From the NCBI RefSeq assembly GCF_004010195.1, contig NC_057744.1, forward strand, positions 35,782,710 to 35,846,709: a stretch of 64,000 nt of DNA. The letters are read 5' to 3'. Shown here piece by piece: positions 31,590-42,940 of the stretch (positions within the stretch are counted from its first letter, which is position 1; the number at the start of each line of letters is the position of its first letter). This stretch comes from Chiloscyllium plagiosum (taxonomy: Eukaryota). Position numbers and translations under genes: made by a program. The notes beneath the pieces were generated by a model that saw only the letters and a program-made list of their open reading frames with translations, was not told the origin of the DNA and made no database searches.

Positions 31590-31779
31590 TGCTGGTGTTG
31601 GTCTGGGGTGGACAAAGTTATAAATCCAAGTTATAGACCAAGAGATTTATTTGGAAGCACTAGCTTTCTGAGCGCTGCTCCTTCATCAGGTTACCTATTA
31701 ATTTGGAAGTACCTAATACCTAGTGCTTCCAAATAAACCTGTTGGGCTATAACCTGGTGTTGTGTGATTTTTTAACTTT
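31590..31779. mobile_element. Second Penelope-derived fold-back family with a hammerhead core on the minus strand
   Basis: Arms tttatttggaagcactag and ctagtgcttccaaataaa. Minus strand reads CTGATGA-A-GGAGC-AGC-GCTCA-GAAA-GC-TA at 31689-31661. Confidence 0.75.
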
Positions 31780-34771: not shown

Positions 34772-36255
34772 TCATGGAATCATAGAGTCATAGAGATGTA
34801 CAGCACGGACGCAGACCCTTCGCTCCAACTTGTCCATGCTGACCAGACATCCCAACCCAACCTAGTCCCACCTGCTAGCACTTGGCCCTCTAGTTCTGGA
34901 CTCCCTGAACCCCCGGGAAAAGGCTTTGTCTATTTATCCTATCTATTCCCCTCATGATTTTATTAACCTCTATAAGGTCACCCCTCAGCCTCCGATGCTC
35001 CAGGGAAAACAGCCCTAGCCTATTCAATCTCTCCCTATAGCTCAAATCCTCCAAACCTGGCAACATCCTTGTAAATATTTTCTTAACCTTTTCAAATTTC
35101 ACAACATCTTTCCGATAGGAAGGAGACCAGAATTGTATGCAATATTCCAACAGTGGCCTAACCAAAGTCCTGAGGTAAAAACAATGACTGCAGATGTTGG
35201 AAACCAGATTCTGGATTAGTGGTGTTGGAAGAGCACAGCAGTTCAGGCAGCATCCAAGGAGCTTCGAAATCGACGTTTCAGGCAAAAGCCCTTCATCAGG
35301 AATAAAGGCAGTGAGCCTGAAGCGTGGAGAGATAAGCTAGAGGGTGGGGGTGGGGAAAAAGTAGCATAGAGTACATTGGGTGAGTGGGGGAGGGGATGAA
35401 GGTGATAGGTCAGGGAGGAGAGGGTGGAGTGGATAGGTGGAAAAGGAGATAGGCAGATGGGACAAGTCCGGACAAGTCATGGGATGGTGCTGAGCTGGAA
35501 GTTTGGAACTAGGGTGAGGTGGGGGAAGGGGAAATGAGGAAACTGTTGAAGTCCACATTGATGCCCTGGGGTTGAAGTGTTCCGAGGCGGAAGAGGAGGC
35601 GTCCTTCCTCCAGGCGTCTGGTGGTGAGGGAGCGGAGGTGGATACAATAAATGATATTAGTGGATGCTCAAGTAAAATTTTGATGGATGTGGAAGGCTCC
35701 TTTAGGGCCTTGGATAGAGGTGAGGGAGGAGGTGTGGGCGCAGGTTTTACAGTTCCTGCGGTGGCAGGGGAAAGTGCCAGAATGGGAGGGTGGGTTGTAG
35801 GGGGGCGTGGACCTGACCAGGTAGCCACGGAGGGAACGGTCTTTGCGGAAGGCGGAAAGGGGTGGGGAGGGAAATATATACAGCCACAACATGCCCTCCC
35901 AACTCCTGTACTCAATACTCTGACCAATAAAGGAAAGCATACCAAACACCTTCTTCAATGTCCTACCTACCTGCGACTCCACTTTCAAGGAGCAATGAAC
36001 CTGTACTCCAAGGTCTCTTGGTTCAGCAACACTCCCTAGGACGTTACCATTAAGTGTATAAGTACTGCTAAGATTTGCTTTCCCAAAATGCAGCATCTCA
36101 CATTTATCTAAATTAAACTCCATCTGACACTACTCAGCCCATTGGCCAACGTAATCAAGATCCTGTTGTAATCTGAGGTAACCTTCTTCGCTGTCCACTA
36201 CACCACCAATTTTGCTGTCATCAGCAAACTTACTAACTATACCTCTAACTATACA
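34772..36255 (-). mobile_element. CR1/HER1-type LINE 3' part, interrupted by a Penelope-like element
   Basis: ORFs MEFNLDKCEMLHFGKAN...RDLGVQVHCSLKV and RTLVRPLLEYCIQFWSPSYRKDV; (catagagt)n tail. Confidence 0.9.
35173..35878 (-). mobile_element. Penelope-like element, 3' part: Cys-rich linker, internally deleted GIY-YIG region, ORF end, and 3' region with a hammerhead core
   Basis: Minus translation gives FPSPPLSAFRKDRSLRGYLVRS...FPCHRRNCKTCAH and RLEEGRLLFRLGTLQPQGINVDFNSF. CTGATGA-A-GGGCTTTTGCCT-GAAA-CGTC at 35299-35272. The host CR1 rejoins across the insert (tcctg|tacagcc). Confidence 0.85.
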
Positions 36256-41335: not shown

Positions 41336-41993
41336 GCATCAGTTTTATTATTTATCATGAATGCTGAACTTTTAAATGATTGAGTTTTAAAACGTTTGAC
41401 TCAAAGTATAACGGAAAATTCAAGGTAAATATCTCAGCACAAAATCATATCCATAGGGCCTGGTTGCCCCAGGGAGAGTAACACAAGCAAAAGATTAGTA
41501 TGAAAGCCTTAATACAGACGCAGTAGTGGTACAGAAAATTTGGAATTACTTCAAAACATTTAGAGAATCTGCATCTTTTAACATTTAGAAAGAACATTAA
41601 TGAATTTTTGTACAATGATGAGTACTGATATGACTTGATGACTCCCAACCTGGAAGCAGCATCAATGAGGAGGGCATTAAAATATGGAGACCATGTGGCA
41701 CACTGGCACAAAAACAGAGGGACCAAGAGAAGAGAGGATCTGGGAGCTGTGATTGCTTTGGAAGCAAGTGTGCAACAAAAAAATTACACGCTAGAACCCT
41801 GTTTACATGAATGCTGCTAAATATGTAAAATTGGCAGCTGAGATCCAGATGAAAAAGTATTAGAATTTGCTTTGAATAACTAAAACTGACCTTACCGTTT
41901 GAGTAAACTGTCTACTTCTTCCCTGAAATGATATTTGTTGTATTCACCATTCCAAGTGCAGTATATAGTTCACACTGATCATAGTTTATGTAA

Positions 41994-42174
41994 GGAGAAA
42001 GTGAGGTCTGCAGATGCTGGAGAGCAGAGCTGAAAATGTGTTGCTGGAAAAGCGCAGCAGGTCAGGCAGCATCCAGGGAACATTCCTGAAGAAGGGCTTA
42101 TGCCCGAAACCTCGATTCTCCTGTTCCCTGGATGCTGCCTGACCTGCTGCGCTTTTCCAGCAACACATTTTCAG
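41994..42174. mobile_element. Young Penelope-derived fold-back: perfect 54-bp inverted repeat, hammerhead core in the loop, exact 14-bp TSD
   Basis: Arms 42029-42082 and 42122-42175 are exact reverse complements. The loop contains CTGAAGA-A-GGGC-TTAT-GCCC-GAAA-CCTC. TSD catagtttatgtaa at 41980-41993 and 42175-42188. Confidence 0.9.
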
Positions 42175-42329
42175 CATAGTTTATGTAACTCAATTTTAAT
42201 TTGAATTGATTCTAATCCACCTTAAACTTACAAAAAGTGGAATCTTGCCCAGAAATTTCTTCAGTTAGTTGTCATTCAGGAAATTTGCTTCTTTTGGTTT
42301 ATGAATCACATAGGGATTATAAACTGTTA

Positions 42330-42940
42330 TTTGTCTGTTTTCATATTTGAATATTGTGGGAGTGCACTATGTCAATGAATATTATGCATAAATGAATATG
42401 CATTTCTGGGTGCTGTTTGAGTGTATAATCAGTTGCGCATGTGTTTGGGGCTACATGTGCATATAACCATGTGAATGTATATTTGGGTGCTGTGTGATGA
42501 TATAATCAGGTGTGTATATGTTCCAGTGCTGTATGTTTCCATATTGAATGCATAGATGTTGAGTACTGTGCCAGTTCATATTCAGGGGTGTATATATTTG
42601 AGAGGTGAATAAGTGATTTTCAAGAGAGTATATATTATAGAGGAATCTTGATCATCCGGCATTTGATTAAGTGAATTTTGGATTATCTGAACAAGATCAC
42701 AAGGTCCTGATGCATGGCTAACTATGTTATTCCGCATTTGATTAACCGAACAAAATACTCATCACCCGTGTCTTTTGGCTAATCAAAGTTACTCTGTACA
42801 TCGGAGTGCTGAATGAATGATTTAGAGTTGTATACATTTCAGTGTGATGTGAGTAATATTTTGAGAATGGATATGTTTAGGTGCTCGCTGAGTGATATCC
42901 AGATATGTATATGTTGGATGCTGATATTTAAGTGCATATC
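42330..42940. repeat. Degenerate tandem array with a unit of about 38-40 bp, interrupted by a MITE
   Basis: Units such as tttgggtgctgtgtgatgatataatcaggtgtgtatatg and ttgagtactgtgccagttcatattcaggggtgtatata. Confidence 0.65.
42638..42796. mobile_element. Tigger/pogo-like MITE (about 159 bp) with TA target duplication
   Basis: Imperfect TIRs TA|tagaggaatcttgatcatccg and, in reverse complement, TA|cagagtaactttgattagcc; internal repeat gcatttgattaa twice. Confidence 0.6.

Follow-up and report, generated by a model that had tools for sequence, protein, structure and literature searches.

A hairpin of 181 bp, with a hammerhead ribozyme motif in its loop and an exact duplication at its borders, lies within the 64,000-nt stretch of Chiloscyllium plagiosum DNA analyzed here (the window). 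It raises the question of whether so short a unit moves by itself or was left behind by another mobile element and, in the latter case, how two inverted copies of one sequence end came to lie head to head. The evidence set out below points, with high confidence, to a one-off Penelope stub; the answer to how such stubs arise is given far more tentatively.

The hairpin and its insertion site

The insert occupies 41994-42174, between two exact copies of the 14-bp sequence CATAGTTTATGTAA at 41980-41993 and 42175-42188. Its arms, 42029-42082 and 42122-42175, are 54 nt each, 100% complementary and 39 nt apart, with base 42175 belonging at once to the right arm and to the duplication on that side. 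The loop contains CUGAAGA (42086-42092), an A, the helix GGGC-UUAU-GCCC (42094-42105) and GAAA (42106-42109), followed by CCUC. The hairpin strand is predicted to fold at -127.7 kcal/mol, with a z of -14.8, and stem II is present in this fold. The initial annotation had already claimed the reverse-complementary arms, the 39-nt loop with its hammerhead boxes and the 14-bp duplication, all of which were confirmed; absent from it was an unpaired stretch of 35 nt at 41994-42028, which is a Penelope tail. The parts of the locus are as follows.

41980-41993, no strand: left target-site duplication, 14 bp; direct repeat, single copy at the empty site of relatives
41994-42028, minus strand: Penelope tail, 35 nt, on this arm only; long copies continue from here into the leader and the ORF start
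42029-42082, minus strand: remainder of the long (tailed) arm, ending 36 nt downstream of the C of CUGAAGA (q36-125), without the hammerhead
42081-42082, no strand: head-to-head junction overlap of 2 nt, CA (gap -2)
42081-42175, plus strand: short arm, without a tail; nothing is missing between the inferred transcript start (ATTCC) and the boundary of the tail (q-5 to 89)
42086-42113, plus strand: minimal type I hammerhead motif, composed of CUGAAGA, an additional A, a stem II of 4 bp, GAAA and CCUC
42175-42188, no strand: right target-site duplication; direct repeat, single copy at the empty site

The position of the hammerhead in the loop reflects no design, because the loop is simply the stretch of the short arm for which the truncated long arm has no counterpart. 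The perfect stem is likewise ordinary for the family: identical arms were found in 7 of 29 sampled hairpins, and the chance of a perfect 54 bp, calculated from the background divergence, is 0.36-0.48.

In two related organisms the site is empty. Contigs that join 41979 directly to 42175 were obtained from three runs, one contig per run (X5 and X18 from organism B, X10 from organism C), the record positions being consecutive across the joint, from which it follows that the 14-bp repeat is a true target-site duplication. The hairpin is a real, recent insertion that is missing from two related species, which bears out the recent origin proposed in the initial annotation. Beside the insertion, at 42398-42915, degenerate repeats with a spacing of 76-77 bp were seen that Tandem Repeats Finder did not report; the part at 42398-42600 is present in the relatives.

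The parent element and its hammerhead

A search of the genome with the unit yielded 3,259 candidates; the best 40 scored match it over nearly the full length at 90-100%, and exact flanking repeats of 14-17 bp accompany 22 of the 30 best matches. The 38-nt core pattern with the ACGU of the family has 27,158 exact copies, versus 0 for a control pattern. Long copies carry the same end before an ORF and again about 3.8 kb downstream, with 93.5-98.9% identity to the arms of the window copy (95.7-98.9% for the short arm), and beyond the tail some copies continue into a reading frame that starts MPSLKKLSSSLYKDF. In loci L222, L227 and L229 the hammerhead/tail end is found, whole or partial, on both sides of the coding region, as pseudo-LTRs are. 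The readable parts of separate long copies contain RT motifs in a stretch resembling an RT and, at the terminus, a region resembling GIY-YIG. Pfam returned one weak match among nine long translations; GIY-YIG scored 20.8 bits, below the cut-off of 22.6 (E 4.7e-4), and RVT_1 15.9 bits, below the cut-off of 29.6 (E 0.011). A comparison of the RT piece with solved structures gave no match. Homologues of the readable protein parts comprised 444 matches, several with PF00078 or PF01541, and the closest named ones are uncharacterised carpet-shark proteins with 61-74% identity. Judged from these parts, which come from separate copies and not from an intact ORF, the parent is very likely an endonuclease-bearing Penelope-like element. 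The 35-nt tail of the window copy falls within the 30-40 nt seen on one end of such elements, and their target-site duplication and empty site are likewise found. The Penelope origin claimed at the outset is thereby upheld, since the two arms resemble the ends of long copies in which an ORF is flanked by two such ends. Among the papers listed in full-text searches, which did not extend to subscription papers, Repbase and supplements, none describes this shark family as judged by titles and the beginnings of abstracts.

The window contains further traces of Penelope elements. On the minus strand at 35171-35881 lies a 5'-truncated copy of another family with a tail, the 3' region and the remnant of the nuclease-coding end; its hammerhead motif, at 35299, has a changed stem II. 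A degenerate hammerhead of a third family (CUGAUGA, a GGAGC stem and GCUA after GAAA) is located at about 31630-31697, also on the minus strand. Elsewhere, in loci L164, L169, L171, L173 and L178, a piece of the 5' coding region directly precedes a copy that begins at the hammerhead start, and these loci look as if the copy had run off the front of the RNA and jumped into the ORF.

A hammerhead pattern matched twice within the window and not once in 100 shuffles. With a descriptor, 204 motifs were detected in 0.97 Mb of overlapping loci, many of them selected for the motif, versus none in one shuffle. Among the descriptor matches, stem II differs but remains paired (GGGC/GCCC, GGAGC/GCTCC, GGGTC/GATCC, GGGT/ACCC) and loop II is variable. 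Rfam, searched up to an E value of 10, gave 12 matches, all below the gathering score and all miRNA-type hairpins; none was a hammerhead, a result that was not taken as evidence against a minimal motif. The ribozyme assignment is therefore based on the motif and its variation across families. The minimal type I motif recognized in the initial annotation is supported; its boxes recur in several families with a varied yet paired stem II.

That annotation had also doubted the cleavage of this copy because it reads ACCU instead of ACGU and has a weak stem I, and the family gives substance to the doubt. GAAA is followed by CGTC in 156 of the 204 descriptor matches and by CCTC in 2, so that the palindrome at positions 15.2-16.2 is kept by the family and lost in the window copy. 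The loss is due to a private G-to-C change at 42111, where most reads show G. Stem I of the window copy has a U-U mismatch, and the predicted cut would fall after 42113. On these features self-cleavage of the window copy is unlikely; the part of PMC4209133 available reports no self-cleavage of a minimal hammerhead monomer and low activity for dimers.

A sister family contains an internally deleted unit in which hammerheads lie 320 bp apart in direct orientation, as seen at both ends in loci L175, L177 and L182 and also in L158. Its stem I is a perfect 4-bp helix (AUUC/GAAU). The deleted unit was seen at about 1300-1650 in loci L157, L175, L177, L179 and L182, and one deletion junction is exact in 68 dispersed genome copies. 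This 320-bp unit looks like a true non-autonomous, retrozyme-sized Penelope derivative.

Junctions, arms and the formation of the hairpins

The question of independent movement was approached through the head-to-head junction. A 40-nt pattern across the junction of the window copy has 6 exact copies in the genome. Ranking by likeness to the whole 181 bp gave the false look of a fixed unit and was replaced by position order, in a sample of 90 loci along contig C1 that includes most of the 100 listed core matches; an intact 38-nt core was required of the loci, so that 5' ends falling within the core are hidden. All loci together provided 125 head-to-head candidate pairs, of which 88 with a clear duplication were kept and 37 dropped. 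Among the 37 position-ordered hairpins bounded by duplications there are 30 junction types, none identical to that of the window copy. The variation of the junctions indicates that the hairpin is made at each insertion.

Two readings that grant the hairpin a life of its own have to be weighed against these data. According to one, it propagates itself as a non-autonomous unit of a MITE-like or retrozyme-like kind, with transcription and reinsertion of the entire hairpin. Indeed, 12 of the 30 best matches have the junction of the window copy and resemble one 181-bp element with duplications. These 30 matches, however, were ranked by likeness to the query, the 12 differ in subfamily letters and flanks, and none of them carries both private changes of the window copy (42024, 42111); some recurrence is expected because the junctions typically overlap by a few bases. 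The 6 exact junctions stand against 27,158 cores, and the position-ordered hairpins do not display the one fixed internal structure in most copies that would mark a MITE-like family. Nor are there direct tandem units, each with a hammerhead, as in a retrozyme: the locus has one motif in an inverted unit, and Tandem Repeats Finder detected no tandem array between 38000 and 47000. The self-propagating unit is largely refuted, and we regard it as very improbable. The other reading makes the hairpin a host regulatory RNA, either a microRNA-type precursor or a domesticated ribozyme, for which the very stable fold and the sub-threshold miRNA matches in Rfam could be cited. Since the Rfam scores lie far below the gathering thresholds and are driven by the stem alone, the ribozyme palindrome is mutated and the hairpin is absent from two related species, this reading has next to nothing left of its probability. 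Of the two options in the initial annotation, the truncation/inversion product is thus retained and the non-autonomous retrozyme-like unit is not; on copy number and on shared versus unique breakpoints, matters it had raised, the core is abundant, the exact junction rare and the junctions mostly vary. The window hairpin was likely assembled during its single insertion by the enzyme of the Penelope element and is probably unable to move again. As a locus it is ordinary, one dead stub among thousands.

The hairpins obey common rules. A long arm, which ends at the far end of the tail, is paired with a short arm, which ends at or before the inner boundary of the tail, in 37/37 position-ordered hairpins and in 87/88 of all those bounded by duplications; 15 of the 37 candidate pairs lacking a clear duplication are short plus short or long plus long. 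The duplication measures 13-16 bp in 78 of the 88 hairpins. Unpaired copies, the ends of which are rough, number 26 short and 22 long. The two arms of a hairpin share subfamily letters: arms mixed at position 42 were observed twice versus 33 expected, and within one subfamily the values are 2 versus 20 at position 85 and 0 versus 9 at position 68. Homogenisation after insertion was considered as the cause of this identity and was ruled out, as one private change is common to both arms (in L108) versus 44 that are unshared. In the older subfamily, 5/24 hairpins are mixed T/C at position 38, where the background is 2.7%, which implies either two templates or a later conversion in some of the events; among younger hairpins, 2/46 are mixed at position 85.

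The 5' ends are also regular. The upstream sequence of the element is followed for at most 5 nt by 65 of 95 core matches, and 24 extend for 36-298 nt. Of 15 core matches ending at ATTC, 11 are preceded by G, where the element has C. Genome-wide, G precedes ATTCC 3,444 times versus 2,280 for A or T, 60% versus the expected 27-29% or so, with some of the G counts deriving from palindromic centres. The extra G could result from a terminal-transferase bias. The window copy has C before ATTCC and thus does not show the cap signal.

A mechanism with one RNA and two primers can be proposed, to which we give an even chance. The GIY-YIG nuclease would nick the two target strands at positions separated by about 14 bp, and reverse transcription of the same RNA would be primed at either nick. 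The first primer would start at the inner tail boundary and run off the capped 5' end just before CUGAAGA, yielding the short arm. The second would start about 35 nt further 3', trail behind and displace the first copy until it stops, yielding the long arm, and the two cDNA ends would be joined through an overlap of 2-4 nt (microhomology). Its place at the front of the transcript would bring the hammerhead along, and cleavage would be unneeded. The window copy fits this mechanism in that its short arm is complete, its long arm stopped at +36 and the two overlap by CA. In a more specific form, to which we assign somewhat less than an even chance, the reaction is coupled: on one capped transcript, a protein dimer would prime from both nicks at two fixed sites that are separated by about 35 nt, and the copy in front would run off the cap while being displaced by the one behind. 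From a single RNA molecule, each event may then leave one arm with the tail and one without, and the A immediately before the hammerhead may be where the copies place the transcript start. Among the papers listed in full-text searches, judged by titles and abstract beginnings outside subscription papers, Repbase and supplements, none presents a model of Penelope with cap run-off or twin priming.

The same origin is compatible with other ways of making the second arm. In a fold-back, the cDNA would be copied on itself and resolution by the nuclease would leave the tail, perhaps followed by a later deletion of the centre. The shared subfamily letters agree with this, self-priming has been proposed for Penelope inverted repeats in the available part of PMC3846280, and the private change on both arms of L108 and the nearly symmetric centres of 4/11 long-centre hairpins (loops of 1-15 nt) are explained equally well. 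Arguing against it is the window copy, the tail-less arm of which is complete and the tailed arm cut at +36, so that neither is a plain copy of the other and the geometry requires a later deletion. A fold-back from the long arm also runs counter to the truncation bias, as only the long arm is cut short in 16 hairpins and only the short arm in 5 (p 0.027), and in 6/61 hairpins the arms barely or never overlap, as in twin priming; we consider a fold-back unlikely. Alternatively, the two nicks might prime on two RNAs, usually from one source locus and perhaps held together by the protein dimer or by a dimer of ACGU hammerheads. The mixed arms at positions 38 and 85 would follow directly, PMC11167929 presents a dimeric model of the protein, and a single source locus dominant at a time would also yield agreeing arms. 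Priming on two RNAs leaves unexplained both why the long arm is the truncated one and why arms abut at the tail boundary, and it appears doubtful. The best explanation overall, which we hold with good confidence, is a Penelope stub of one insertion, made by the enzyme of the element, the mechanism proposed above being its more tentative part.

Comparison with known systems

In LINE-1 twin priming, both target nicks prime on one RNA and the inversion is joined by microhomology; there is no overlap between the pieces, and the position of the second start varies. In the shark family, by contrast, each start has a fixed position and the pieces overlap in most cases, which gives the hairpin.

Non-LTR retrozymes, in the parts available of PMC7229834 and bioRxiv 10.64898/2026.07.22.740005, consist of direct tandem units, each with a hammerhead. 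Like them, the window hairpin is short, non-coding and PLE-related and has a type I hammerhead; unlike them, it has only one unit, which is inverted, a minimal motif that occurs once and is damaged, and a junction that is not shared. Cervera and De la Pena (2014, PMC4209133) described minimal hammerheads in the pLTRs of metazoan PLEs, with thousands of dispersed single motifs and opposite-strand pairs 100-700 bp apart that were read as truncated PLEs; the word shark does not occur in its main text. The motif of the shark family agrees with theirs in the core boxes, the additional base ahead of stem II, the closing G-C pair and the palindromic positions 15.2-16.2, whereas the window copy departs from it with a stem II of 4 bp, the U-U mismatch in stem I and the lost palindrome.

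The architecture of the hairpin is already published, as can be seen from the available parts of PMC3846280, PMC8557442, PMC4209133 and PMC11167929. Pen2a_Av (PMC3846280) and the scheme in PMC8557442 depict a Penelope unit with an inverted 5'-truncated end, a one-sided tail of 30-40 nt, which is also described in PMC11167929, and a duplication. The window hairpin resembles the Pen2a_Av unit in its adjacent, inverted and truncated end, head-to-head arrangement, one-sided tail and target-site duplication; it differs in having no ORF between the ends and in measuring only 181 bp. The duplications are mostly 13-16 bp in the shark family versus 8-10 bp in the rotifer examples of PMC3846280.

The Poseidon protein of Anolis carolinensis has been shown in vitro to cleave the two strands and to extend each of them (Frangieh et al. 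2024, PMC11167929). Its two start sites are internal and delimit the tail, and insertion needs no hammerhead activity. The hammerhead of Poseidon is located at the front of the coding region and is dispensable, to which the shark family has been likened here; the likely start codon of the shark family lies beyond the tail and not in stem II, unlike in Poseidon. The portion of that paper available addresses neither the formation of inverted pairs nor a run-off at the cap. The population of hairpins is of modest mechanistic value in this respect, as it bears on the formation of Penelope inverted ends with a one-sided tail: the pairing, the arms from the same source, the truncation bias and the extra G at a fixed 5' end give rise to predictions that can be tested directly in the in vitro system of PMC11167929. 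The almost strict pairing of a long with a short arm sets the shark family apart from the Penelope insertion unit as described, and the coupled two-primer reaction, if true, would explain the inverted-repeat-plus-tail signature that the available part of PMC8557442 calls undefined and unresolved.
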